Source of the DNA: Candidatus Gastranaerophilales bacterium
GTDB taxonomy: Bacteria > Cyanobacteriota > Vampirovibrionia > Gastranaerophilales > JANQFW01
Reading direction: 5' to 3'
Assembly: GCA_028280605.1 (NCBI GenBank)
Contig: JANQLL010000143.1
Coordinates: 4,218-68,217, forward strand
Length of the DNA stretch: 64,000 bases
Shown here: piece by piece, positions 18,505 to 58,866 of the stretch
How the letters are laid out: every line of letters begins with the position of its first letter
Numbering within the stretch: the first letter of the stretch is position 1
The notes under the pieces: model-generated
Databases searched by the model: none
Told to the model about the DNA's origin: nothing
Seen by the model: only the letters and a program-made list of their open reading frames with translations
Translations under genes and position numbers: made by a program

Positions 18505-19383
18505 CTAGCTTAAAATATCAGTAAAAGTACACTTAACTACTCCAAGTTTACGTGCATCATATAATCCTACTCCGAATAATCCTGCACCTTTAAAGGTTAA
18601 ATCTACAGAACTATCAGGTATATAGCTGATGAGCTCAATATCTTTTTGTACTGCAACAGCTAGCGCTTGTTTTTTAACACCAAAGTAACAATAATATGTA
18701 CCACCTGAATTAAAGCAATTATTAGACTCATATAAATCAAACCCCGCTATTTTCTTACCAATTTTACCGTTTTTATAAGTTTCCAATCTGGCTTCTTCAG
18801 TGTAGAATGGTTTACTATCTACCAATAAGTGGGCGTAATATACTGGTGGCGCAACAAAGAACAAGTCTTTCATTGCTAATCTGCCACAACCCAGCTTTTC
18901 TTTTAATTGGCGTTGACATTCAACCAATACTTTCCAAGCATTGCTACTTGATATCGAAATTGGTGATCCAGAAGAGTCGACTGTCATACCAGCTTGGTCA
19001 TATAAAGCTGCTAACTTTTCGTCAATATCGTTAGCAAATGAGTGGTTAGTTTTTTTAGTATATTTTTTAGCCATTTCAGGATCTTTGGCTGCTTGTTTGG
19101 CATCTGTACGTGGTATATAAAAGTGGACTTGACCACCGTGATTGATTTTAATTTTAGTAGTTGCAGCCTGCAATTTTTCTCTGGTATCTAAATCTCCGCC
19201 TGTCCAAGAATTATATGTAATTGATGGTTCGATGAAAACATCCACTTCGTCTCCATATTCTTTGACAGAGTTAGAAAATTCTGTATTAGCTATGTCTCCG
19301 AATACTAAAGATTCATAAATTTGTTCCACAAATGTTGTTTTAAATGTTTGTGGAATAAGTTGTTGAAGAGCCTGTACAGTCAT
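18505..19383 (-). CDS. phage major capsid protein
   Basis: N-terminal QQLIPQTFKTTFVEQIYESLVFGDIAN resembles the common capsid IPE.W...v...L....vf motif; 292 aa; directly follows the scaffold-like gene. Confidence 0.7.
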   Translation of the reverse strand: MTVQALQQLIPQTFKTTFVEQIYESLVFGDIANTEFSNSVKEYGDEVDVFIEPSITYNSWTGGDLDTREKLQAATTKIKINHGGQVHFYIPRTDAKQAAKDPEMAKKYTKKTNHSFANDIDEKLAALYDQAGMTVDSSGSPISISSSNAWKVLVECQRQLKEKLGCGRLAMKDLFFVAPPVYYAHLLVDSKPFYTEEARLETYKNGKIGKKIAGFDLYESNNCFNSGGTYYCYFGVKKQALAVAVQKDIELISYIPDSSVDLTFKGAGLFGVGLYDARKLGVVKCTFTDILS

Positions 19384-24402: not shown

Positions 24403-24433
24403 TATCATTGCATTCCATAATTAATTTTTAGAA

Positions 24434-24467
24434 AAATCCCTGCTTGTCTTGACTAAGCGGGGATTTT
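24434..24467. terminator. bidirectional terminator closing both the MCP gene and the cassette array
   Basis: Stem atccctgctt/aagcggggat flanked by an A-run and a T-run. Confidence 0.65.
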
Positions 24468-24837
24468 AGGATTCAGGAGGTTTTATTTTCTGTAAAATTC
24501 TATGCGTCGAATAGTAATATTGCTCATCAAGCACTTGTGTTCGTTCAAGCTCTTCCAATCGTTTTATAAATCTAACATCTTTTATTTTTTGCCTGACGTC
24601 ATCTTTTGTATAATAAGCTGGATCATCTAGTTCATCCCTTGTTTTAGCAAGGCAATCTACCAATTCAATGTGATAATGAAGGTCTTGAATAATATCAAAC
24701 TCAGCATCTGTTATTTCATCCTCTGGAGCATAGTCATCAGTCACACAAAACATTTCATCTGCGTATACACCCATAAATGTATCTATATCATCCTTTTTAC
24801 AGGACTCTAATATTCTTTTAGCTATATCTGTTAACAT
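24466..24837 (-). CDS. array cassette 10, family B small acidic protein
   Basis: MLTDIAKRILESCKKDDIDTF...LEELERTQVLD. ATG at 24837 chosen by analogy with the other B copies. The centre carries the A-type motif AKTRDELDD. Confidence 0.7.
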   Translation of the reverse strand: MLTDIAKRILESCKKDDIDTFMGVYADEMFCVTDDYAPEDEITDAEFDIIQDLHYHIELVDCLAKTRDELDDPAYYTKDDVRQKIKDVRFIKRLEELERTQVLDEQYYYSTHRILQKIKPPES

Positions 24838-24954
24838 ATTGCGCACCCCTTATTATTTATGATCCCAGCTGTTCATTTTACTTGCACTCAACGCTTTACC
24901 TGTTTTCATGCCAGCCTCCTTTCTATTTTTACAATAGTTTATTAGATTGTTTTT

Positions 24955-25281
24955 TTATTCATCAAGTACCTGAGTTCGTTCAAGCTCTCCTAGCTTTTCT
25001 ATTATTCTTTTGTCTTTAACTTCTTCCAGCATTTCATACCTTGTATAAGAGTTTCTTTTATCACTGAGCTCATCTTTAGTTCTAGCATTTACTACACAGA
25101 GATCACCTTCAATGAATATAATTTCCAAGATATCATCTTCAGCTTCAGTTGTTCCAGCAAAATGTGCGTTATATACATATTCTTCTTTGTAAAGGTCAAT
25201 AAATTCCACCAGTGCATCTTCATCTCCATTAATAGCTTTTTTGCCTAGTTCATATAATTCACGTGCTAATTTTGACAACAT
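24955..25281 (-). CDS. array cassette 9, family A small acidic protein
   Basis: MLSKLARELYELGKKA..GDEDAL N-terminus, with a B-type tail LGELERTQVLDE. Confidence 0.7.
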   Translation of the reverse strand: MLSKLARELYELGKKAINGDEDALVEFIDLYKEEYVYNAHFAGTTEAEDDILEIIFIEGDLCVVNARTKDELSDKRNSYTRYEMLEEVKDKRIIEKLGELERTQVLDE

Positions 25282-25399
25282 ATCATACCCACTCCTTGTT
25301 TTTTACGTCTCCAGTTGTTCGTTTTACTTGCATTCAACAGTTTGCCTGTTATCATGCCAGCCTCCTTTCTATTTTACAATGATAATAAAGCTTAGTTAT

Positions 25400-25738
25400 C
25401 TATTTATTCACATCATTTTCATCAATAACCTGTACTTTATCTAGTTCTTCTAGTCGTTCTATTACTCTACGGCCTTGCATTTCTTCTAGGACGTCATATA
25501 TTGTATAGTTATCCTCATCATATAGTTTATCAGGTGTCCTAGCCTGTCGTTCACATGTTTCACCAGCTGTATGTATACTTAATAAAATGTTATATTCATC
25601 CTCTGTCAGGTTAGCATCATTTAAATTATCTACATACTCATCACGATAAAGATCAATAAAATTCAATAGTGCATCTTCATCACCTATTAAAGCTTTTTTA
25701 CCTAATTCATATAATTCACGTGCTAATTTTGATAACAT
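25400..25738 (-). CDS. array cassette 8, family A small acidic protein
   Basis: MLSKLARELYELGKKALIGDEDAL...LEELDKVQVIDENDVNK. Confidence 0.7.
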   Translation of the reverse strand: MLSKLARELYELGKKALIGDEDALLNFIDLYRDEYVDNLNDANLTEDEYNILLSIHTAGETCERQARTPDKLYDEDNYTIYDVLEEMQGRRVIERLEELDKVQVIDENDVNK

Positions 25739-25808
25739 ATCATACCCACTCCTTGTTTTTTACGTCTCCAGTTGTTCGTTTTACCTGCATTCAACAGTTT
25801 GCCTGTTA

Positions 25809-26150
25809 TCATACCAGCCTCCTTTCTACTTTACATTGATTATCATCAAGCACCTGTGTTCGTTCAAGCTCTTCTAGCCGTTCTATAAACCTAACATCTT
25901 TTATTTTTTGCCTAACTTCATCTACTGTATAAAAAGCTGGATCTTCCAATTCCTCTCTGGTACCAGATTGTACCAGTTCAATGTGTTCATGGATGTCTTC
26001 GATAATATCTATTTCAGCATCAGTCATTTCGTCATATGGTGCATAATCATCAGTCACGCATGATATTTCATCTGCATATATACTCATAAATGTATCTATA
26101 TCATCATTTTTACAGGACTCTAATATTTTTTTAGCTATGTATGTTAACAT
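25809..26150 (-). CDS. array cassette 7, family B small acidic protein
   Basis: MLTYIAKKILESCKNDDIDTF...LEELERTQVLDD. The C-terminus reads on into sequence that is the leader in other units. Confidence 0.7.
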   Translation of the reverse strand: MLTYIAKKILESCKNDDIDTFMSIYADEISCVTDDYAPYDEMTDAEIDIIEDIHEHIELVQSGTREELEDPAFYTVDEVRQKIKDVRFIERLEELERTQVLDDNQCKVERRLV

Positions 26151-26253
26151 ATTGCGCCCACTCCTTCGACTCTCGTTTTACTTGCATTCAACAGTTTGCC
26201 TGTTATCATGCCAGCCTCCTTTCTATTTTACAATGATAATAAAGCTTAGTTAT

Positions 26254-26592
26254 CTATTTATTCACATCATCTTCTTCAATGACCTGTACTTTATCAAGCT
26301 CTCCTAGTTGTTCTATTATTTTCCAGGTTTTTAATTCTTCTAGCAGATCATATATTGTATAATTTTCTTCTTCATATAGTTCATCTGGTGTTTTTGCCTG
26401 TCTTTCACAAAGCTCACCTGCTGTATGTACAATAAATAAAATTCTCTTTTCGGCTTTTGTTACGTTGGCATCATTCAATTTATCTACATACTCATCACTA
26501 TAAAGATCAATAAATGCTAATAAAGCATTCTCATCTCCAGTTAGAGCTTTTTTACCTAGTTCATATAATTCTTGTGCTAATTCTGATAACAT
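26254..26592 (-). CDS. array cassette 6, family A small acidic protein
   Basis: MLSELAQELYELGKKALTGDENAL...LGELDKVQVIEEDDVNK. Confidence 0.7.
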   Translation of the reverse strand: MLSELAQELYELGKKALTGDENALLAFIDLYSDEYVDKLNDANVTKAEKRILFIVHTAGELCERQAKTPDELYEEENYTIYDLLEELKTWKIIEQLGELDKVQVIEEDDVNK

Positions 26593-26706
26593 ATCATACC
26601 CACTCCTTGTTTTTTACGTCTCCAGTTGTTCGTTTTACCTGCATTCAACAGTTTGCTTGTTATCATGCCAGCCTCCTTTATATTTTACAGTGATTGTTCA
26701 TTATTT
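26593..26706 (-). promoter_or_regulatory. representative conserved inter-cassette leader (SD + mini-ORF); 9 copies in the array
   Basis: Minus strand reads AAAGGAGGCTGGC-ATG ATA ACA .GC AAA CTG TTG AAT GCA .GT AAA ACG. The same core is in all nine spacers between 24847 and 28445. Confidence 0.6.
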
Positions 26707-27027
26707 TTACTCAACAACTTGTACTTTATCCAATTCTTCTAATTCTTCTATAATTTTACGTTCTTTTATTTCTTCTAATGCCTCATATCTTGTATAAGAC
26801 TCTTCATCATATAGTTCATCTCGTGTTTTTGCATTTAATTCACAAATTTCAATAGTTATATATATATCAAATAAAATGCTATCTTCATCTTCAGTTAACT
26901 TAGCATAATCTAAATTATTTATGTATTCTTGACGATAAAGATCAATAAAGTCAACCAATGAATCTTCATCTCCTGCAATAGCTTTTTTGCCCAACTCATA
27001 TAATTCTTGCGCTAATGTTGACAACAT
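26707..27027 (-). CDS. array cassette 5, family A small acidic protein
   Basis: MLSTLAQELYELGKKAIAGDEDSL...LEELDKVQVVE. Confidence 0.7.
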   Translation of the reverse strand: MLSTLAQELYELGKKAIAGDEDSLVDFIDLYRQEYINNLDYAKLTEDEDSILFDIYITIEICELNAKTRDELYDEESYTRYEALEEIKERKIIEELEELDKVQVVE

Positions 27028-27122
27028 AATATTGAGCTCTTTCCTTCGACTCTCGTTTTACTTGCATTCAACAGTTTGCCTGTTATCATGCCAGCCTCCT
27101 TTCTGTTTTACTAAAGTATTTA

Positions 27123-27434
27123 CTATTTATCAAGCACCTGTGTTCGTTCAAGCTCTTCCAATCGCTCTAAAAATCTAACATCTTTTATTTTTTGCCTAAC
27201 TTCATCTACAGTATAATAAGCTGGGTCATCCAACTCTTCTCTTGTACCAGCTTGAACCAGTTCAATGTATTCATGAATTTCTTCAATAATATCTATTTCA
27301 GCACGAGTCATTTCGTCATGTGGAGCATAATCATCAGTCACACAAAACATTTCTCTTGAGTATACGCATATAAATCTATCTATATCATCGTTCTTACAAG
27401 ATTCTAATATTCTTTTAGCTATGTATGTTAACAT
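27123..27434 (-). CDS. array cassette 4, family B small acidic protein
   Basis: MLTYIAKRILESCKNDDIDRF...LEELERTQVLDK. The internal ATG at 27434 is preferred over the 17-codon extension in the ORF track. Confidence 0.7.
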   Translation of the reverse strand: MLTYIAKRILESCKNDDIDRFICVYSREMFCVTDDYAPHDEMTRAEIDIIEEIHEYIELVQAGTREELDDPAYYTVDEVRQKIKDVRFLERLEELERTQVLDK

Positions 27435-27569
27435 ATTGCGCCACCCCTTATTATTTATGATTCCAGCTGTTAGTTTTACTTGCATTCAACATTTTGCCTG
27501 TTATCATGCCAGCCTCCTTTCTATTTTACAATGATAATAAAGTTTAGTTATCTATTTATTCACATCATC

Positions 27570-27890
27570 TTATTCAATAACCTGTATTTTATCTAGCTCT
27601 TCTAGCTTGTCTATTACTTTCCAAGTTTTCAATTCTTCTAGTACGTCATATATTGTATAACAATCTTCCTCATATAGCTCATCTGGAGTTCTAGCTTGTA
27701 GCTCACATATATCAATACCCGTGTGTATAATTAATAAAATATTGGATTCATCTTTTGTTAAACCTGCATTGCTTAATTTCTCAATATACTCATTACTATA
27801 AAGCATAATAAATTCTACCAGTGCATCTTCATCACCAGCTGTAGCTTTTTTACCTAACTCATATAATTCTTGTGCTAATTCTGACAACAT
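27570..27890 (-). CDS. array cassette 3, family A small acidic protein
   Basis: MLSELAQELYELGKKATAGDEDAL...LEELDKIQVIE. A TAA replaces the GAA that continues as EDDVNK in cassettes 6 and 8. Confidence 0.7.
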   Translation of the reverse strand: MLSELAQELYELGKKATAGDEDALVEFIMLYSNEYIEKLSNAGLTKDESNILLIIHTGIDICELQARTPDELYEEDCYTIYDVLEELKTWKVIDKLEELDKIQVIE

Positions 27891-28003
27891 ATTGCGCCCA
27901 CTCCTTCGACTCTCGTTTTACTTGCATTCAACAGTTCGCCTGTTATCATGCCAGCCTCCTTTCTGTTTTACGCTTTACATTTTACAATGATTGTCAATTA
28001 TTT

Positions 28004-28324
28004 TTACTCAACAACTTGTACTTTATCCAATTCTTCCAGTTTTTCTACTATTTTCCAGGTTTTAATTTCTTCCAATACTTCATCTATAGCATAACAATAT
28101 TCATCATCCAGTTCGTCTCGAGTTTTTGCATCAAGTTCACAGGTGTCACCAGCTGTATATATAGTAAATAAAATTTTCTTTTCGGCTCTAGTAATATCAG
28201 CGTAATCTAAATTTTCTACATATTCCTTACGGTAAAGTATAATAAATTTCATTAAAGCATTTTCATCTCCAGCTAGAGCTTTTTTACCTAATTCATATAA
28301 TTCTTGTGCTAATTCTGATAACAT
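28004..28324 (-). CDS. array cassette 2, family A small acidic protein
   Basis: MLSELAQELYELGKKALAGDENAL...LEELDKVQVVE; internal ATG at 28324 preferred. Confidence 0.7.
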   Translation of the reverse strand: MLSELAQELYELGKKALAGDENALMKFIILYRKEYVENLDYADITRAEKKILFTIYTAGDTCELDAKTRDELDDEYCYAIDEVLEEIKTWKIVEKLEELDKVQVVE

Positions 28325-28445
28325 ATTGCGCCACCCCTTATTATTTATGATTCCAACTGTTCGTTTTACTTGCATTCAACAGTTTGCCTGTTATCATGCC
28401 AGCCTCCTTTCTGTTTTACAATGATAATAAAATTTAGCTATCTAG

Positions 28446-28808
28446 TTATTCTTCTTCACCTTCGTCATCATAATCATCATCTTCTTCTTCAATAACTTGC
28501 ACTTTATCAAGTTCTCCAAGTTTTTCTATCATTTTATCGTCTTTAACTTCTTGTAAAAATCCATACCTTGTATAAGAGTTTCTTTTATCATAGAGGTCAT
28601 TTTTAGTTTTGGCATTTACCTCACAGAGATCGCCGGCAATAAATGTGATACATAAAATATCACGCTCCGCATCAGTTATATCCGCAAAATGTGCGTTATC
28701 TACATATTCGTCCTTGTAAAGGTCAATAAATTCCACCAGTGCATCTTCATCACCAGCAATAGCTTTTTTGCCTAGTTCATATAATTCTTGTGCTAATTCT
28801 GACAACAT
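28446..28808 (-). CDS. array cassette 1, family A small acidic protein; candidate cognate partner (immunity-like) of the upstream 634-aa protein
   Basis: Starts 30 nt after the 634-aa gene stop with its own RBS and lacks the conserved leader; poly-acidic tail EEEDDDYDDEGEEE. Confidence 0.7.
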   Translation of the reverse strand: MLSELAQELYELGKKAIAGDEDALVEFIDLYKDEYVDNAHFADITDAERDILCITFIAGDLCEVNAKTKNDLYDKRNSYTRYGFLQEVKDDKMIEKLGELDKVQVIEEEDDDYDDEGEEE

Positions 28809-28838: not shown

Positions 28839-30743
28839 TTATTCAACATTTTTTTTAATAATAGTCCATTTTTCTGAATCTGTATTTGTCTTTAAAAGAT
28901 TCACAGTATCAGCTCGGAAGAATGTAACAACCTCATCTGTATGCTCATCCAAGACAACAACATAACGATCACTGTTTATTATTTTTGTTTTAATAATTTT
29001 AAAACCAGGTTCATCTTTCTTCTTTTCAAAATATCTCTGGCCTGTTTCTTTTGTTATTTTAATAAAATTCACGTCACTCACTTCATATCTATTAATGTTT
29101 GTTATAAGTCGATACTGCCCGTGCTTAGTAAATTTAAGCCCTTTTTTTTCGAGATCTCTGAGATGTTTAAAAGATTTAGTGACACCTTTAATCTTTACAG
29201 TATGTTTTTCTCCTTTAGGGCAGTAACGCACAAAATCTTTAGCTCTTTCAAGCTCTTCTGATAGAAGCTCTTTGGATTTTTCTATTTCTTTTATTGTAGT
29301 CTTTATTCTATCACGAATTTCTGCAGGACTTAAATTTTCTGTCGATTCACATAGCTCTGCTAGTTGCTCAGGAGGAAGCTTTCCTTTTTTCTTTTTGCTT
29401 TTTCTTTTTACTCCTTTAATCGTCTTTCCAATAGAGAATCCGCCTAAAGTTAATTCCGCTAAATTAGTTCCAATTGAGCCTGCATGCGCTATGGCCTCTA
29501 AGTCAGAATACCTATTTTCATATGTACCACCAGAAGGATGAGGCATATTTCGTATATCAGGCAGTTGATAAGGCTTATATTTCTTACCGGTATAAGTAGA
29601 AGCTAATCCAGTCAGCATATTCACTGAATCTTGCATGTTATCCCTTAAGGTTCTAGCTGCTCCATAATTGAATGCGTTTTGAGTATCCAGAATCGTTCTA
29701 TAGGGATTTTGTCTAAGAGCACCACCATAAGATTGAATACTATTATTCAAATAGTTGCCATAATCCATTAAACCTTGAGGCAAGTTTTTTATAACTTCAG
29801 GTATGCTTGCTATGCTGTTAATTCCTGCATCCATCAAGTTATACAGGCCATCATAATGAATAGAATAATCTGGGTCATACAAGTTATTTGGATTTAAAGA
29901 AGTAGTAAAAGGTTGCATCCAGGAGGGTGGTTCAGTAACTATTGGTTTTCTTCTTGTATTATTGCTATTTGAATCAAAATACGGCATTTGCTCAAAAGCA
30001 GGTGGAGGAACATCCAACGGCAAATCCCCACCAATCTTAGGATTGGTATTGATATTTGGCATAGGATTATAACCAGGTGCTCCTTGCCTCTGACGGCTAA
30101 GTTCACTATATGCTTTTGTCGTCGTAGATGTAATATTAAGAATATTATTGATTGCAGACTTAACTTGTTCTTTAGTAATACCGTCCTTAGGCTCTTGTGG
30201 GTCTTGAGGCTCTTTGGGCTTGACTGGAGGCGGTGATGGAGGAGGCTCTAGATACTCATTTTTTGTAATACCTAATATAAGTTTGCCTCTTTCACTGTCA
30301 TAAGTATATCCTTCACCTGCGTCAGCTCCTGGATTATCTTTATTAGCCATCAATGGAGCGGGTCTGGTTGGATTGAATGGGTCATAGCGCATTAATAAAT
30401 CATGAGTTTGTGGATCATAATAATACCAATCTCTAGGTTTTCTTGACCAGCTTGGCATCGGTACAGGACCAAATTCTGGAGGTATGTCAGGAAAATCATC
30501 AGGCCAAGGACTAAATCCCGGATCTGGATCATAATAATCCCAATAATCCCAAATGTCAGGTTTTCTTGGCCAGCTAGGCATAGGTACAGGACCAAATCCT
30601 GGATCGGGATAATACCCACTCCAAGGTCTACGCTTAGGGTAAATTCTAATTGCTTTAAAATTTTCACGTGGCGGTAATTTCACCGGAGAGTTAACCTCAG
30701 GTAAATGAGGTATCAATCCTGGATCAATATTTATCATTGCCAT
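28839..30743 (-). CDS. 634-aa modular protein: W/P/D-rich repeat N-terminus, Lys-rich linker, C-terminal ~180-aa domain resembling DUF4258/RelE-fold toxin modules (inference)
   Basis: Duplicated FGPVPMPSW.RKP..W.YYDP units, PPPSPPPVKPKEPQDPQEP linker, KRKSKKKKGK linker, and a C-terminal FTKHGQYRL...VSDVNFI...DRYVVVLDEHTDEVVTFFRA pattern. Confidence 0.5.
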   Translation of the reverse strand: MAMINIDPGLIPHLPEVNSPVKLPPRENFKAIRIYPKRRPWSGYYPDPGFGPVPMPSWPRKPDIWDYWDYYDPDPGFSPWPDDFPDIPPEFGPVPMPSWSRKPRDWYYYDPQTHDLLMRYDPFNPTRPAPLMANKDNPGADAGEGYTYDSERGKLILGITKNEYLEPPPSPPPVKPKEPQDPQEPKDGITKEQVKSAINNILNITSTTTKAYSELSRQRQGAPGYNPMPNINTNPKIGGDLPLDVPPPAFEQMPYFDSNSNNTRRKPIVTEPPSWMQPFTTSLNPNNLYDPDYSIHYDGLYNLMDAGINSIASIPEVIKNLPQGLMDYGNYLNNSIQSYGGALRQNPYRTILDTQNAFNYGAARTLRDNMQDSVNMLTGLASTYTGKKYKPYQLPDIRNMPHPSGGTYENRYSDLEAIAHAGSIGTNLAELTLGGFSIGKTIKGVKRKSKKKKGKLPPEQLAELCESTENLSPAEIRDRIKTTIKEIEKSKELLSEELERAKDFVRYCPKGEKHTVKIKGVTKSFKHLRDLEKKGLKFTKHGQYRLITNINRYEVSDVNFIKITKETGQRYFEKKKDEPGFKIIKTKIINSDRYVVVLDEHTDEVVTFFRADTVNLLKTNTDSEKWTIIKKNVE

Positions 30744-30865: not shown

Positions 30866-31123
30866 TCACTCAGAGCGCTTCACCTTTGCTTCAAATTCAT
30901 CAGCATTTTTTGCCATACTCTTAATCATTTCAAGAATCCGCCTCATACCAACCGCAATAAAATAATTGCTAATAGACCCAAAAAGCGTCAAAATATTTGC
31001 CCTCTGTATCATCCCCAGTACTTCACTATTCACGGCATTCTCAAAAACCTTATAAGCATCGCTTTTATAAAACTCACGTACCTTTTTGTTATCGTGATAT
31101 TGCTTAAAGCATTCGTTTTTCAT
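30866..31123 (-). CDS. hypothetical 85-aa protein with one hydrophobic segment; first gene of the toxin/array unit
   Basis: AAGGAG RBS; ILTLFGSISNYFIAVGM hydrophobic stretch; preceded by the structured leader. Confidence 0.45.
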   Translation of the reverse strand: MKNECFKQYHDNKKVREFYKSDAYKVFENAVNSEVLGMIQRANILTLFGSISNYFIAVGMRRILEMIKSMAKNADEFEAKVKRSE

Positions 31124-31150: not shown

Positions 31151-31300
31151 AAAAAGGGAACAGGCGGTGACCTTGACACCGCCTGCCAGACCGGACCAAG
31201 GTCCCGGTCTGTATAATGTGGGATCCCCAACTGGCGCACGCCATCAACAAGAAAAGCACCCATCCCCTCAGTTCCCTTCCCTGGAATGGAAGGGGAGGAT
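31151..31300 (-). ncRNA. GC-rich structured leader or small RNA ending in an intrinsic terminator
   Basis: Consecutive GC stems: cccttcc/ggaaggg (31274-31294), cagaccgg/ccggtctg (31187-31211), caggcggtg/caccgcctg (31161-31185). The last is followed by a T-run on the minus strand. Composition contrasts sharply with the AT-rich flanks. Confidence 0.4.
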
Positions 31301-31407: not shown

Positions 31408-33150
31408 TTACATAATAGGTGGAGGAACATTAGCAGGTGATGGGACCTCTTCAGGAGGTGCGCCTCTCATAGCTTGCATTTGCTGAACAAGAAAGTCAGC
31501 AAGCTGATTTTTCACCTGAGGCAGCATATCTGGTGGGAACTGATTAAGCAATACATCAAGCTTATCAGCCAGCACAAAACGCTCAGGGTGTTTGATATTT
31601 TGGAATTCTAACCAATATTTAAATGTTTCAGCAGTGTTAACAGGCGCACCTGCTACCATAAATTTTTCCAAACCCTGAACAAAATTATCTATTTCACCCT
31701 GACGCTGTAATAAGCCCTTACGATCAGTATAGTCATATTTATAAGAGCCTTGACGTACATCTGGCGTAATATTTAAGTTAATAAGCTGATGCTTCAAGTA
31801 TATAGGGATATTTTCTTCATCCAATTTAAAATTACCAAGCAAATCAGCAATTTTCATAATAATATCAATCAAAAATTCTTGAATCTCTTCAATAACAAGC
31901 ATCAAGCGTATTTGTTGCCCGTTAACAAGTATATTAGCCTCGGTAGCCGTTCTTGTAGAATCATCCTGAATACCTGCCATATAAGGAAATATCCCGGACG
32001 TACTTTGCATAACAGATTTAAAATAATCCAAAAACTTAAAATCAACCCAAGTAGAATCAAATCTAACAGGTTGAGGCATTTGTTGCACCTGCCAATTATC
32101 GATTGCATAATAACGCCCCGGCTCCCATTCAATATCGCCGGTATCATCAGCCAGACCTTCAGGTCCAATCATTGGTGGGTTTTGGACTAACTCTAATATA
32201 TTCATCATTCTGGTTAATATGTGGCTGGAAACCAAATTATGAGCAATCAACACCTTAAGCGGAGACACACCCCGTTTGGTTTCATGATCTTTTACCACCT
32301 GATAAATAACAAAAGGATTACTAATATAAGGATTTTGTTCAAACCTGATAACGTGTTTATTATCTGCAATAACAACAAGCCAATTTTTCAAATTCGTCCC
32401 GTCTGATAGCTTAACATCGCCCCAGCATTCTAGTAGTTCTATTTTGTTGGGTTCAGTAGACGCATGATATTTTTCTTTCAACTCAGACTTAACTTCTTTG
32501 CTAAGATTAAAAGTTTTTTCCTCCAGCAAATGCTCATAAGATATATGTTTTCTGCGTATTTTCAATGCCCTGTCAAAGTCCGTACAATCCACATCATAAA
32601 CAAAGTCTTTGCTGTCAACATTTTCTGTCTTAGGCCCGTCGTATACGGTTTCGTTTAATAAAACGAACTTATTTTCAGTCTCATCTTTTCGCCTAACCTG
32701 TTTAACCTTTGTTTGCCAACCGATTTCAGCAATAAACTCGCCATAAATCAAATAATTTTCAAGTATATCCCTGGACTCCTTTTTAAACTCCATATCTCTC
32801 AAAGCATATAAAAGCGCTTCTTTTTGCGCATAAGAATTATTATGGCTAACCTCATCCCTGCCCAAAACCGCAAAATTCTCCAGATGACTGTCCATATATT
32901 GTCTTAAATTTGCTTTAAGCGTTTCTTTTAGTTCATACATAGTATCAGTATCAATAAGATCATTATATTTGATATCTGACACAGCATCCCTGTCAATCAT
33001 TTTCAAAAGCGTTTCGCCATCTTTAAGATGTCTTTTTCTGCTATTATCAAATTTAACAAACTTGGAAGACAGCTCTTGAGCCAATTTTTCAGCCAAGCTG
33101 TCGCTAAGGCGGACTTCTTTATCCTCCTTAATAAACACAAAACTATCCAT
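31408..33150 (-). CDS. putative phage portal protein
   Basis: 580 aa, lying between the terminase/lysozyme genes and the capsid module. The call rests on size and position only. Confidence 0.55.
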   Translation of the reverse strand: MDSFVFIKEDKEVRLSDSLAEKLAQELSSKFVKFDNSRKRHLKDGETLLKMIDRDAVSDIKYNDLIDTDTMYELKETLKANLRQYMDSHLENFAVLGRDEVSHNNSYAQKEALLYALRDMEFKKESRDILENYLIYGEFIAEIGWQTKVKQVRRKDETENKFVLLNETVYDGPKTENVDSKDFVYDVDCTDFDRALKIRRKHISYEHLLEEKTFNLSKEVKSELKEKYHASTEPNKIELLECWGDVKLSDGTNLKNWLVVIADNKHVIRFEQNPYISNPFVIYQVVKDHETKRGVSPLKVLIAHNLVSSHILTRMMNILELVQNPPMIGPEGLADDTGDIEWEPGRYYAIDNWQVQQMPQPVRFDSTWVDFKFLDYFKSVMQSTSGIFPYMAGIQDDSTRTATEANILVNGQQIRLMLVIEEIQEFLIDIIMKIADLLGNFKLDEENIPIYLKHQLINLNITPDVRQGSYKYDYTDRKGLLQRQGEIDNFVQGLEKFMVAGAPVNTAETFKYWLEFQNIKHPERFVLADKLDVLLNQFPPDMLPQVKNQLADFLVQQMQAMRGAPPEEVPSPANVPPPIM

Positions 33151-36088: not shown

Positions 36089-37375
36089 TCACCGCCTAAC
36101 CACCTTAATAGGATAAAAGAATTCAATGGGATAACTTGCCGCATCAAATATGTGCCCCATAAACTTAGCGTTTCGATCCGTCTTTATTTGCTGATGAGAA
36201 GGCACATCAAGCTGGGTTGTCCCCTCTTTGTATTTTAAATTCCTAATATTATGCAGCAACCACTTGCATCTGGGATTTACAAAAAGCTCTCTTTTGCCGT
36301 TCTGATTTAATACTTTTGCATTAAAAGCAGCAATCCTGCTGTTAACAGAAGGATTAAAATTACGTATCTTAACCTTTGGCCTGTATCCGTATTTTTTCAA
36401 TTGATTAAATATAATTGCATAATCAGTAAAAATACTGCTGGTCTTTCTATAATCACCGGACGCATCGCCAGTTATAACGATTTTGCCCTTATGATGTGGA
36501 TACCTGTGAATAAATTCTTCGGCAGCATCTTTAGTAGTGGTATTTTCAATAACAATCTCATCAAAAAAATAAAAAGCCCCGTCACGAACAAAAAATACCA
36601 CCCACGACATAGGATCAACGTTAAAATCACATCCGATAAATAATGTCTCATCGTCCTTGTATTCAATATTATTTTTAATATTTACACCGGTAAAATGCTT
36701 AACAACAAGCCCTTTTGTATAATCTCCAAACTGCCCCAGAACATTTATTTTATAGTAGTCAGGGTCAAATTTGTCTTTCATGTTGTCAATATACTCATCA
36801 GGCAGGTGAATATTTTCAGTAGTAGGTGCAATCAATAGCCTGTAGTTTTCTTTTTCATTCTCAACAAAATGTTTGTAAATCCATCCCTTGTTAGGTTCAG
36901 GGTTAGTATGCCCAAACAGTCTGTATCTAGGTATCCCTGACTGTCTTAAACGACTTAAAAGCATAAAAAAAGATGCCTCAGGGACATCCGATACTTCTTC
37001 TATTTCAACAAACCCCAGGTTTAGCGATTTCAAGCTTTCCGGCTCATCCAAATATTTAAACATAATTTCCGAAGAATTTTTAAACTTTATTTTATGGTCT
37101 GTTTTGTTAAATTCGTAGTCTATCTTCATATTTCTTAAATGTTCAAAATACGTTTGTAACGTAGTTTCAGAAACAAGTTTAAATGTTTTGGCGCCAACCA
37201 GTCCTTTAATTCCTGGGTATTTTTGTGCCAGCAGTATGCCAAGTAGAGCTCCAGACCAGGTTTTACCACTGCCGTAGCCTCCCTGGTAAATTGCAACATC
37301 AATTTTATGTTCATGTTCGATTTCCAAAAAGTCCTTTTGAGCAGGTAATAACGTGTATTCATTCATATTTAGCAC
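36089..37375 (-). CDS. terL: phage terminase large subunit
   Basis: Walker A GGYGSGKT, Walker B-like LGFVEIEE, and nuclease-domain acidic motifs IGCDFNVDP / ITGDASGD. Confidence 0.85.
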   Translation of the reverse strand: MLNMNEYTLLPAQKDFLEIEHEHKIDVAIYQGGYGSGKTWSGALLGILLAQKYPGIKGLVGAKTFKLVSETTLQTYFEHLRNMKIDYEFNKTDHKIKFKNSSEIMFKYLDEPESLKSLNLGFVEIEEVSDVPEASFFMLLSRLRQSGIPRYRLFGHTNPEPNKGWIYKHFVENEKENYRLLIAPTTENIHLPDEYIDNMKDKFDPDYYKINVLGQFGDYTKGLVVKHFTGVNIKNNIEYKDDETLFIGCDFNVDPMSWVVFFVRDGAFYFFDEIVIENTTTKDAAEEFIHRYPHHKGKIVITGDASGDYRKTSSIFTDYAIIFNQLKKYGYRPKVKIRNFNPSVNSRIAAFNAKVLNQNGKRELFVNPRCKWLLHNIRNLKYKEGTTQLDVPSHQQIKTDRNAKFMGHIFDAASYPIEFFYPIKVVRR

Positions 37376-58574: not shown

Positions 58575-58866
58575 AAAGTGTGCCCGACATATTTGACAGC
58601 TAGGACGAATAGAAATCACATATAAAGCATAGCTGGGATGGACGAGCTTGCTTTACAAGGCAAAGTCCAATACCACCGAAAATATGGCAGATATATGAGA
58701 TGAAAGCGGTCGAGTTTACTCGGGGATGTCTTAAAAACAATAAAGCTGATACCACATCAGTACAAACTATTAATAAAAATAAAAAACAAATATTAAACAA
58801 GTTTGATGCTAATAATCAAGTATCAAGTCGAGTATTAAAATCTTTAAAAATATTATCTTACTTGAG

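Follow-up and report, generated by a model that had tools for sequence, protein, structure and literature searches.

Nine copies of a nucleotide-conserved leader in a putative orphan-immunity array of a Gastranaerophilales prophage: a recombination joint with a probable role in translation

The window analysed here is a stretch of 64,000 nucleotides (contig JANQLL010000143.1, positions 4,218 to 68,217) from a metagenome-assembled genome (MAG) of Candidatus Gastranaerophilales, a 3.3-Mb genome in 230 contigs. Among the head and packaging genes of a prophage (major head protein, 18505-19383; portal/adaptor, 31408-33150; terminase large subunit, 36089-37375) lies an array of ten small genes of 103-122 aa, all on the minus strand, which follow a gene of 634 aa resembling polymorphic toxins. 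We call these small genes cassettes 1 to 10. Each of the cassettes 2-10 is preceded by a copy of a conserved leader (u2 to u10), the subject of this study, which contains a Shine-Dalgarno (SD) sequence and opens a short reading frame (mini-ORF; ORF, open reading frame). A second Gastranaerophilales MAG (G002, hereafter the congener) carries a related toxin-like gene and the same leader. The features of the array are, in minus-strand order:

28839..30743, minus strand: polymorphic-toxin-like gene, 634 aa; N-terminal ~445 aa conserved with the congener, C-terminal ~185 aa diverged
28446..28808, minus strand: cassette 1, type A, 120 aa, presumed cognate immunity gene, after a different 30-nt spacer without leader
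28356..28421, minus strand: leader u2; mini-ORF 28341-28397, 18 aa, type 1 tail
28004-28324, minus strand: cassette 2, type A, after leader u2
27908..27973, minus strand: leader u3; mini-ORF 27875-27949, 24 aa, type 2
27570-27890, minus strand: cassette 3, type A, after leader u3
27466..27531, minus strand: leader u4; mini-ORF 27451-27507, 18 aa, type 1
27123-27434, minus strand: cassette 4, type B, after leader u4
27048..27113, minus strand: leader u5; mini-ORF 27012-27089, 25 aa, type 2 variant
26707-27027, minus strand: cassette 5, type A, after leader u5
26625..26690, minus strand: leader u6; mini-ORF 26577-26666, 29 aa, type 3
26254-26592, minus strand: cassette 6, type A, after leader u6
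26168..26233, minus strand: leader u7; mini-ORF 26144-26209, 21 aa, type 2
25809-26150, minus strand: cassette 7, type B, after leader u7; without a stop of its own, it reads into leader u8
25771..25836, minus strand: leader u8 (GGT ATG); mini-ORF 25723-25812, 29 aa, type 3
25400-25738, minus strand: cassette 8, type A, after leader u8
25314..25379, minus strand: leader u9; mini-ORF 25266-25355, 29 aa, type 3
24955-25281, minus strand: cassette 9, type A with a B-like C-terminus, after leader u9
24868..24933, minus strand: leader u10, the most diverged copy; mini-ORF 24853-24909, 18 aa, type 1
24466-24837, minus strand: cassette 10, type B, after leader u10
24433..24467, no strand assigned: inverted repeat and T-run after cassette 10, a probable terminator shared with a convergent chemoreceptor gene

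Seven of the cassettes belong to type A (MLSELAQELYELGKKA...) and three to type B (MLTYIAKKILESCKNDDID...); the two types are ~31% identical and clearly homologous. A big gene followed by small ones in this manner is, as far as gene order can tell, the architecture of a polymorphic toxin with a cognate immunity gene and orphan ones. We detected no terminator-like site between the first and last of these genes.

The core of the leader is ~62 nt long (GTAAAAYAGAAAGGAGGCTGGCATGATAACAGGCAAACTGTTGAATGCAAGTAAAACGA) and lies inside spacers of 95-135 nt. A 46-nt pattern of this core matched eight sites at ≤3 mismatches, compared with 0 expected from 100 shuffles, and both BLAST and a covariance model, run over the 3.3-Mb genome, retrieved exactly nine copies, every one of them in the array. 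These searches agreed with the initial annotation of the window, which had described nine copies in front of cassettes 2-10. We also reproduced its nine ATG positions (28397, 27949, 27507, 27089, 26666, 26209, 25812, 25355, and 24909, minus strand), the length of the mini-ORFs (18-29 codons), the AGGAGG located 5 nt before the ATG (nine of nine copies), and the three versions of the 3' part (type 1 in u2, u4, and u10; type 2 in u3, u5, and u7; type 3 in u6, u8, and u9). The copy at 24909 had been singled out as the most diverged one yet with an open reading frame, and this was indeed the case, the frame being open in all nine. Some details had to be amended. The shared core sequence was right overall, except that u8 has GGT ATG instead of GGC ATG and u6 has ATAAAGG instead of AGAAAGG. 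The coordinates of the spacer 25739-25808 stand, while its shortness is only apparent: for want of its original stop codon, cassette 7 continues across the 5' half of the leader. This cassette is without ~16 nt, stop included, that the copy of the congener keeps, and now ends at a TGA overlapping the ATG of the u8 mini-ORF.

The core turned out to be the best-preserved part of the array. Its mean pairwise identity over 62 nt was 0.91 (0.93 without u10), and in a sliding profile identity reached 0.86-1.00 in the leader, with a 15-column window (AGGAGGCTGGCATGA) at 1.00, and 0.52-0.81 in the cassette bodies. The core is common to units whose cassettes are only ~53% identical in DNA. Between cassettes of type A the proportion of synonymous differences (pS) was 0.51, and between those of type B it was 0.38; the synonymous distance (dS) ranged from 0.45 to 2.1, with no pair closer than 0.45, and the ratio of non-synonymous to synonymous distances (dN/dS) was ~0.25. 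Compared with the synonymous sites in the genes on either side, about 50% of which differ between cassettes, the core is conserved several-fold better. Mere descent from old duplications therefore cannot account for its identity, and as no two cassettes are near-identical, a recent duplication of whole units is excluded. Within the stretch AGGAGGCTGGCATG, the SD and the ATG are unchanged in all copies, the sole change being the spacer base before the ATG in u8. Leader u10 keeps this whole stretch and carries six changes in the following 36 nt.

The mini-ORF did not share the signature of a coding sequence. Over codons 2-12 we counted 11 distinct substitutions, 9 non-synonymous and 2 synonymous (23% synonymous being the random expectation), which fall 5/4/2 on codon positions 1/2/3, so that the third position is the least variable. 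Beyond codon 12, the three tail versions, of 6-17 codons, differ by indels and by the position of the ORF stop. We found no relatives of the peptide in the genome and none in a collection of 15 billion proteins; the exact peptides occur on the contig of the window only, where one copy has been annotated publicly as a gene. An expressed micropeptide or a sequence-specific leader peptide, both suggested in the initial annotation, is thus unsupported by the nine changes against two, the indel-differing tails, and the lack of peptide relatives, and the comparison of codon positions across copies, put forward as a check, gave a result that speaks against a conserved peptide. The leader is conserved at the DNA or RNA level and not as a peptide. 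A programmed frameshift from the mini-ORF into the cassette was dropped because an A-run is present in type 3 leaders only. Type 1 leaders contain a second ATG (GAATGCAAG), in frame with cassettes 2 and 4 (28004-28375 and 27123-27485, minus strand); the extended ORFs of 123 and 120 aa that start there are probably a choice of gene callers, and the frame is broken in u10, hence not conserved.

The array bears the marks of recombination centred on the leaders. Among the exact shared tracts of at least 40 nt, 12 of 13 lie on leaders, with ends that differ between pairs; the 13th consists of the 3' ends of cassettes 2 and 5 plus their 5' flanks. Relative to the ATG, u7 and u9 are identical from -61 to +36, u5 and u7 from -15 to +47, u3 and u7 from +13 to +63, u6 and u8 from +10 to +82, and u4, u7, and u9 from -35 to +14. 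The 5' flank of the leader exists in three kinds, each travelling with the tail of the preceding cassette. Eight of the nine possible combinations of 5' flank kinds and 3' versions occur, and the 3' versions are independent of the cassette type. Since tract ends vary and flanks are reassorted, the core is a recombination joint. As far as such a comparison of copies can establish it, the mosaic shows that homologous recombination has swapped cassettes, the joints lying within the leader. The idea that the conserved block is a homology tract for cassette duplication and shuffling, already present in the initial annotation, gained support from the leader-centred mosaic tracts and from the reassorted flanks.

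We then compared the SD of the leader with the 3' end of 16S rRNA. The 16S gene being unassembled in this MAG, the anti-SD was read from the 16S 3' ends of four genomes of the same order (...CACCTCCTTTCTA, ...CCTCCTTTCTA, ...GGATCACCTCCTTTCTA). From these ends it follows that (T)AGAAAGGAGG is a perfect 10-11-nt complement of the anti-SD. Of the 11 occurrences of the 10-mer AGAAAGGAGG in the genome, 8 fall in the array. Among the AAGGAGG-N4-9-ATG sites outside the array, 58% begin an ORF that is 60 aa or longer, which indicates that this signal is used by the organism. We take the STAB-SD sequence, that of a known type of extended SD considered below, to be GAAAGGAGG, the same as the SD of the leader. 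The spacing between SD and ATG of the mini-ORF is 5 nt in all nine copies. The SD of the mini-ORF had been described as stronger than that of the cassettes, correctly so in length and spacing, although the cassettes still have respectable SDs (AAGGAGTGGG or AAGGGGTGG, ~10 nt from the cassette ATG). The mini-ORF stop had likewise been placed just before or overlapping the cassette start, and we found it within ~20 nt of the cassette ATG in nine of nine cases, 16-19 nt before it in type 1 and 1-16 nt after it in types 2 and 3. Such a layout makes translational coupling via the mini-ORF plausible, and the leader probably also serves the translation of distal cistrons. The leaders showed no recurrent promoter-like or terminator-like site, and the hairpin described below is not followed by a T-run.

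The consensus of the leader can be folded into a hairpin of 36 nt and 12 pairs (GCU.GGCAU..UAACA-loop-UGUUG.AUGC.AGU; -8.6 kcal/mol), which follows the SD directly and in which the A and U of the ATG are paired. This predicted hairpin is possible, being compatible with the data. A search of Rfam with the leader returned nothing at the gathering threshold or at E ≤1. We also considered the leader as a relic of the 5' or 3' end of the toxin gene and rejected this origin: when the leader was compared by blastn (word size 7) with both toxins, upstream regions included, no match was better than E 0.2, and the matches TGGC(A)ATGATAA (toxin start) and AAAATGTTGAAT (toxin stop) are not colinear.

In the pattern scan of genome-contig DNA, the only other contig bearing the leader was JANQHM010000272.1 of the congener. 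The toxin-like protein of the congener is 43% identical overall to that of the window, with DNA identities of 75% in the N-terminal part and 65% in the C-terminal part. The small gene next to it is of type B, in contrast to type A in the window. This presumed cognate B gene (locus L041, 61-372) is 98.1% identical in DNA to the orphan cassette 7 and is followed by the same leader, inside which the contig breaks, leaving the array unassembled beyond. Such near-identity to cassette 7, next to toxin genes that are only 65-75% identical, suggests either that a cassette and its leader moved laterally as one unit not long ago or that the cassette protects against the toxin of a relative. Elsewhere, BLAST and the covariance model, run over 60 to 100 relatives, detected the leader in the congener only, and a pattern scan of JGI metagenomes yielded 0 copies. 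One match in another genome (G023, E 0.05) was discarded as an unrelated hairpin repeat. A scan of genome contigs for cassette proteins gave 0 confirmed matches with a type-A query, which could miss relatives of type B. Word-indexed protein searches led from the cassettes to the proteins of the window only, and from the toxin to those of the window and the congener only; an exhaustive HMMER search (1.84 billion cluster representatives of ~15 billion public proteins) gave two proteins, which by their length and by the stretch matched agree with cassettes of the window itself.

The polymorphism of the toxin-like protein begins directly after LGG(F/S)(S/F)IGKT(I/V)KGV(K/R). Its N-terminus consists of a Trp/Pro/Asp-rich unit of ~60 aa (DPDPGFSPWPD..IPPEFGPVPMP..W.R.P), present in two copies in the genome of the window (G000) and in three in the congener, and contains no trafficking domain of known kind that we could find. 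Neither this protein nor those of the cassettes had any match in Pfam, NCBIfam, or PHROG. An identity of the C-terminus with DUF4258 or RelE-like proteins was rejected, there being no Pfam match even at E ≤1; the structure model of this part was unusable (predicted local distance difference test, pLDDT, 47) and PDB searches by sequence were empty. The AlphaFold model of a cassette protein (cassette 6, 26254-26592; pLDDT 82) is a helical bundle, and its two best PDB matches are both the immunity protein ImmD of the tRNase colicin D (1v74_B and 1tfk_B). With E >1 and TM-scores of 0.55-0.68 these matches are not significant, and the resemblance of the predicted fold to ImmD is a weak lead only.

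Directly upstream of the toxin gene lies an ORF of 85 aa (30866-31123, minus strand), kept in the congener (L041, 2518-2776) with most residues identical by eye. It had no family match and could be a candidate chaperone or adaptor of the toxin. Just upstream of this ORF and the toxin unit, we noted a strong terminator-like hairpin in a GC-rich patch (31159-31187, minus strand; 11 pairs, 7 of them GC). Further away, a match to the Rfam family group II intron D1-D4-3 (58605-58700, plus strand; 39.5 bits for a gathering score of 32) adjoins an ORF of 1557 aa on the opposite strand.

Taken together, we consider it the best explanation, held with moderate confidence, that the nine leaders are one inter-cistronic module of a prophage orphan-immunity array, conserved as nucleotides, acting as a recombination joint, and working in expression as well. 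The module comprises the maximal SD (T)AGAAAGGAGG, the ATG 5 nt further on, and possibly the 12-bp hairpin that includes this ATG, and its conservation would persist because of the additional role in expression. Ribosomes would load on the perfect SD, translate the short ORF over the gap of 95-135 nt, and terminate within ~20 nt of the cassette start. By coupling or by simply filling the gap, termination so close to the start would keep the distal cistrons of a polycistronic RNA of ~4.4 kb translated. The peptide made from the mini-ORF would itself be functionless.

Several observations weigh against this explanation. The two genomes that carry the leader cannot separate selection from short-tract gene conversion, so that these two causes of the identity of the core cannot be told apart. 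We infer the labels toxin and immunity from the gene architecture alone. The hairpin has no compensatory changes in the nine copies, three of its pairs are altered one-sidedly to wobble pairs, u10 breaks two, and whole leaders fold with unremarkable z-scores. There is no conserved structure hiding the SD of the cassettes, the predicted folds differing by leader type, and the cassettes carry an SD of their own; these two points together do not indicate a strict dependence on the mini-ORF. Finally, with exact repeats of up to 98 nt, a length not far from the k-mers of short-read assembly, the order of the cassettes could in part be misassembled.

The same data can be read with less function in the leader. 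It is possible, though on balance less likely, that the leader is purely a homology tract, whose identity is maintained by short-tract gene conversion or by exchange between arrays and whose SD, ATG, and ORF are the inert relic of an ancestral gene start. The mosaic tracts and reassorted flanks, which show recombination in the core, would be expected from such a tract, as would the lack of a coding signature in the mini-ORF and the presence of an SD in front of each cassette; the intergenic blocks of the esaG arrays of Staphylococcus aureus have been interpreted simply as recombination substrates (PMC9484751). Against an inert tract, conversion would have little to work with in keeping up an island of 60 nt amid diverged sequence, and unequal crossing-over would homogenise whole units, yet no cassette pair falls under a dS of 0.45. 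Moreover, SD and ATG are intact even in u10, with its six changes in the next 36 nt, and no source gene for the relic was found, the matches to the toxin ends remaining at E ≥0.2. We regard as unlikely that the leader acts in cis as an RNA element in the manner of STAB-SD, in which the exposed strong SD and the hairpin would set mRNA processing or stability and the ribosome would bind without productive translation. The perfect 10-11-nt complementarity to the anti-SD suits this mechanism, known from STAB-SD (PMC4113751), and so does the position of the 12-bp hairpin (-8.6 kcal/mol) right after the SD, pairing the A and U of the ATG, with a loop more variable than the stem and with stem changes that, outside u10, keep wobble pairing. 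The ATG at ideal spacing points instead to initiation rather than mere binding, and the hairpin shows neither covariation nor a match to an Rfam family. RNase J (TIGR00649), against which STAB-SD works, had no match in this genome and none above the cut-off in the 21 Gastranaerophilales genomes comprising it and 20 relatives (G000-G020), drafts in which absence is unproven. The genomes lacking a match include several that are 99% complete, and Synechococcus, a photosynthetic cyanobacterium used as control, has RNase J.

A functional micropeptide or a regulatory leader peptide of specific sequence, encoded by the mini-ORF, is very unlikely. The ORF is open in all nine copies behind an optimal SD and ATG, and one copy has been called as a gene in public annotation. 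Because the copies are near-identical DNA, the open core ORF is not independent evidence, and the peptide is contradicted by the 9 non-synonymous against 2 synonymous substitutions with the third position least variable, by three tail versions of 6-17 codons, and by the lack of relatives in the genome or among 15 billion proteins. It is scarcely credible that the repeat pattern as a whole is an assembly artefact. One might suspect it in a MAG of 230 contigs, with a longest exact repeat of 98 nt and a congener contig that breaks inside the leader; the nine copies, however, differ from one another in their substitutions and flanks, the intervening cassettes are intact and no two are alike, and the leader is present independently in a second assembly. 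A more speculative version of the expression role, to which we attach very little weight, is a translational switch that senses the toxin: stalling on an always-loaded mini-ORF could step up translation of these orphan genes, and would do so only in a cell under attack. It presupposes that tRNA or the ribosome is what this family of toxins damages, the starting point being the weak fold matches to ImmD; ribosomes would then stall on the mini-ORF, where the tails of types 2 and 3 include Arg codons and extend over the SD and ATG of the cassette. In a milder variant, which we hold just as improbable, the leader would be an integron-like cassette boundary without recombinase, expressing immunity genes and mobilising them between prophages.

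The favoured explanation, that of a joint that also works in expression, opens no long-standing question. The array extends the pattern of homology blocks between tandem immunity paralogues beyond Firmicutes loci for a type VII secretion system (T7SS) to a prophage of Gastranaerophilales (gut Melainabacteria). The toxin and immunity family of this prophage yielded no relatives outside the genus when ~15 billion public proteins, in the form of 1.8 billion cluster representatives, were searched. The array also offers a clean and small example in which a translation-initiation module, and not a coding sequence, is both the best-conserved piece and the recombination joint. If the role in expression is true, it would show how long orphan-immunity operons keep their distal cistrons translated.

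Parts of this organisation recall known systems. The leader shares with the STAB-SD of Bacillus thuringiensis cry3A an extended SD complementary to the 16S 3' end; the latter starts no translation and works against RNase J (PMC4113751), whereas here an ATG stands at ideal spacing in nine of nine copies and RNase J was not found. It resembles the PeSL of T4-type phages, short repeated expression signals between small accessory genes that double as shuffling joints (Arbiol et al., 2010, PMC2839356), with the difference that PeSL combine a promoter and a terminator stem-loop, while the leaders have no consistent promoter or terminator and their signal is translational (SD and ATG). The rAID-1 clusters of Bacteroidales and integron arrays also line up orphan immunity genes in one direction, and the sequences between these genes are likewise repetitive (Ross et al., 2019, 10.1101/471110); in contrast, the cassettes described here are paralogues and not unrelated genes, and no tyrosine recombinase is encoded on the 69-kb contig (PF00589: seven matches in the genome, 0 on this contig, C203). 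Nor does the leader correspond to an attC site (R''-L''...L'-R', about 57-141 bp), since it has a 36-nt hairpin only and its GTTGAAT fits GTTRRRY without an RYYYAAC partner. As for the toxin-like gene, the MuF-type toxins are likewise polymorphic toxins of temperate phages (Jamet et al., 2017, PMC5576092); the protein of the window differs in having no detected MuF domain and, instead, an N-terminal Trp/Pro/Asp-rich repeat.

The closest parallel is provided by the T7SS-associated arrays of esaG in S. aureus and of tipC in Streptococcus, which contain conserved blocks including the intergenic region and in which recombination expands, deletes, and reshuffles paralogues (Garrett et al., 2022, PMC9484751). 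As in these arrays, a toxin gene and its cognate immunity gene are followed by a string of non-identical paralogues (PMC9484751), the intergenic regions are highly similar and of similar length, blocks of high similarity alternate with variable regions, and there is evidence of recombination between units. Unlike them, the present array belongs to a Gastranaerophilales prophage and not to a firmicute T7SS locus, with no link to LXG proteins or T7SS and no Pfam or NCBIfam domain found. Its best block is a self-contained module of 60 nt, made of SD, ATG, and putative hairpin, that exceeds any coding block in conservation; this block is common to two cassette types only 31% identical, and a short ORF spans the spacer. 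Conserved blocks between immunity paralogues are thus already known, and what is new here is the host and the gene family.

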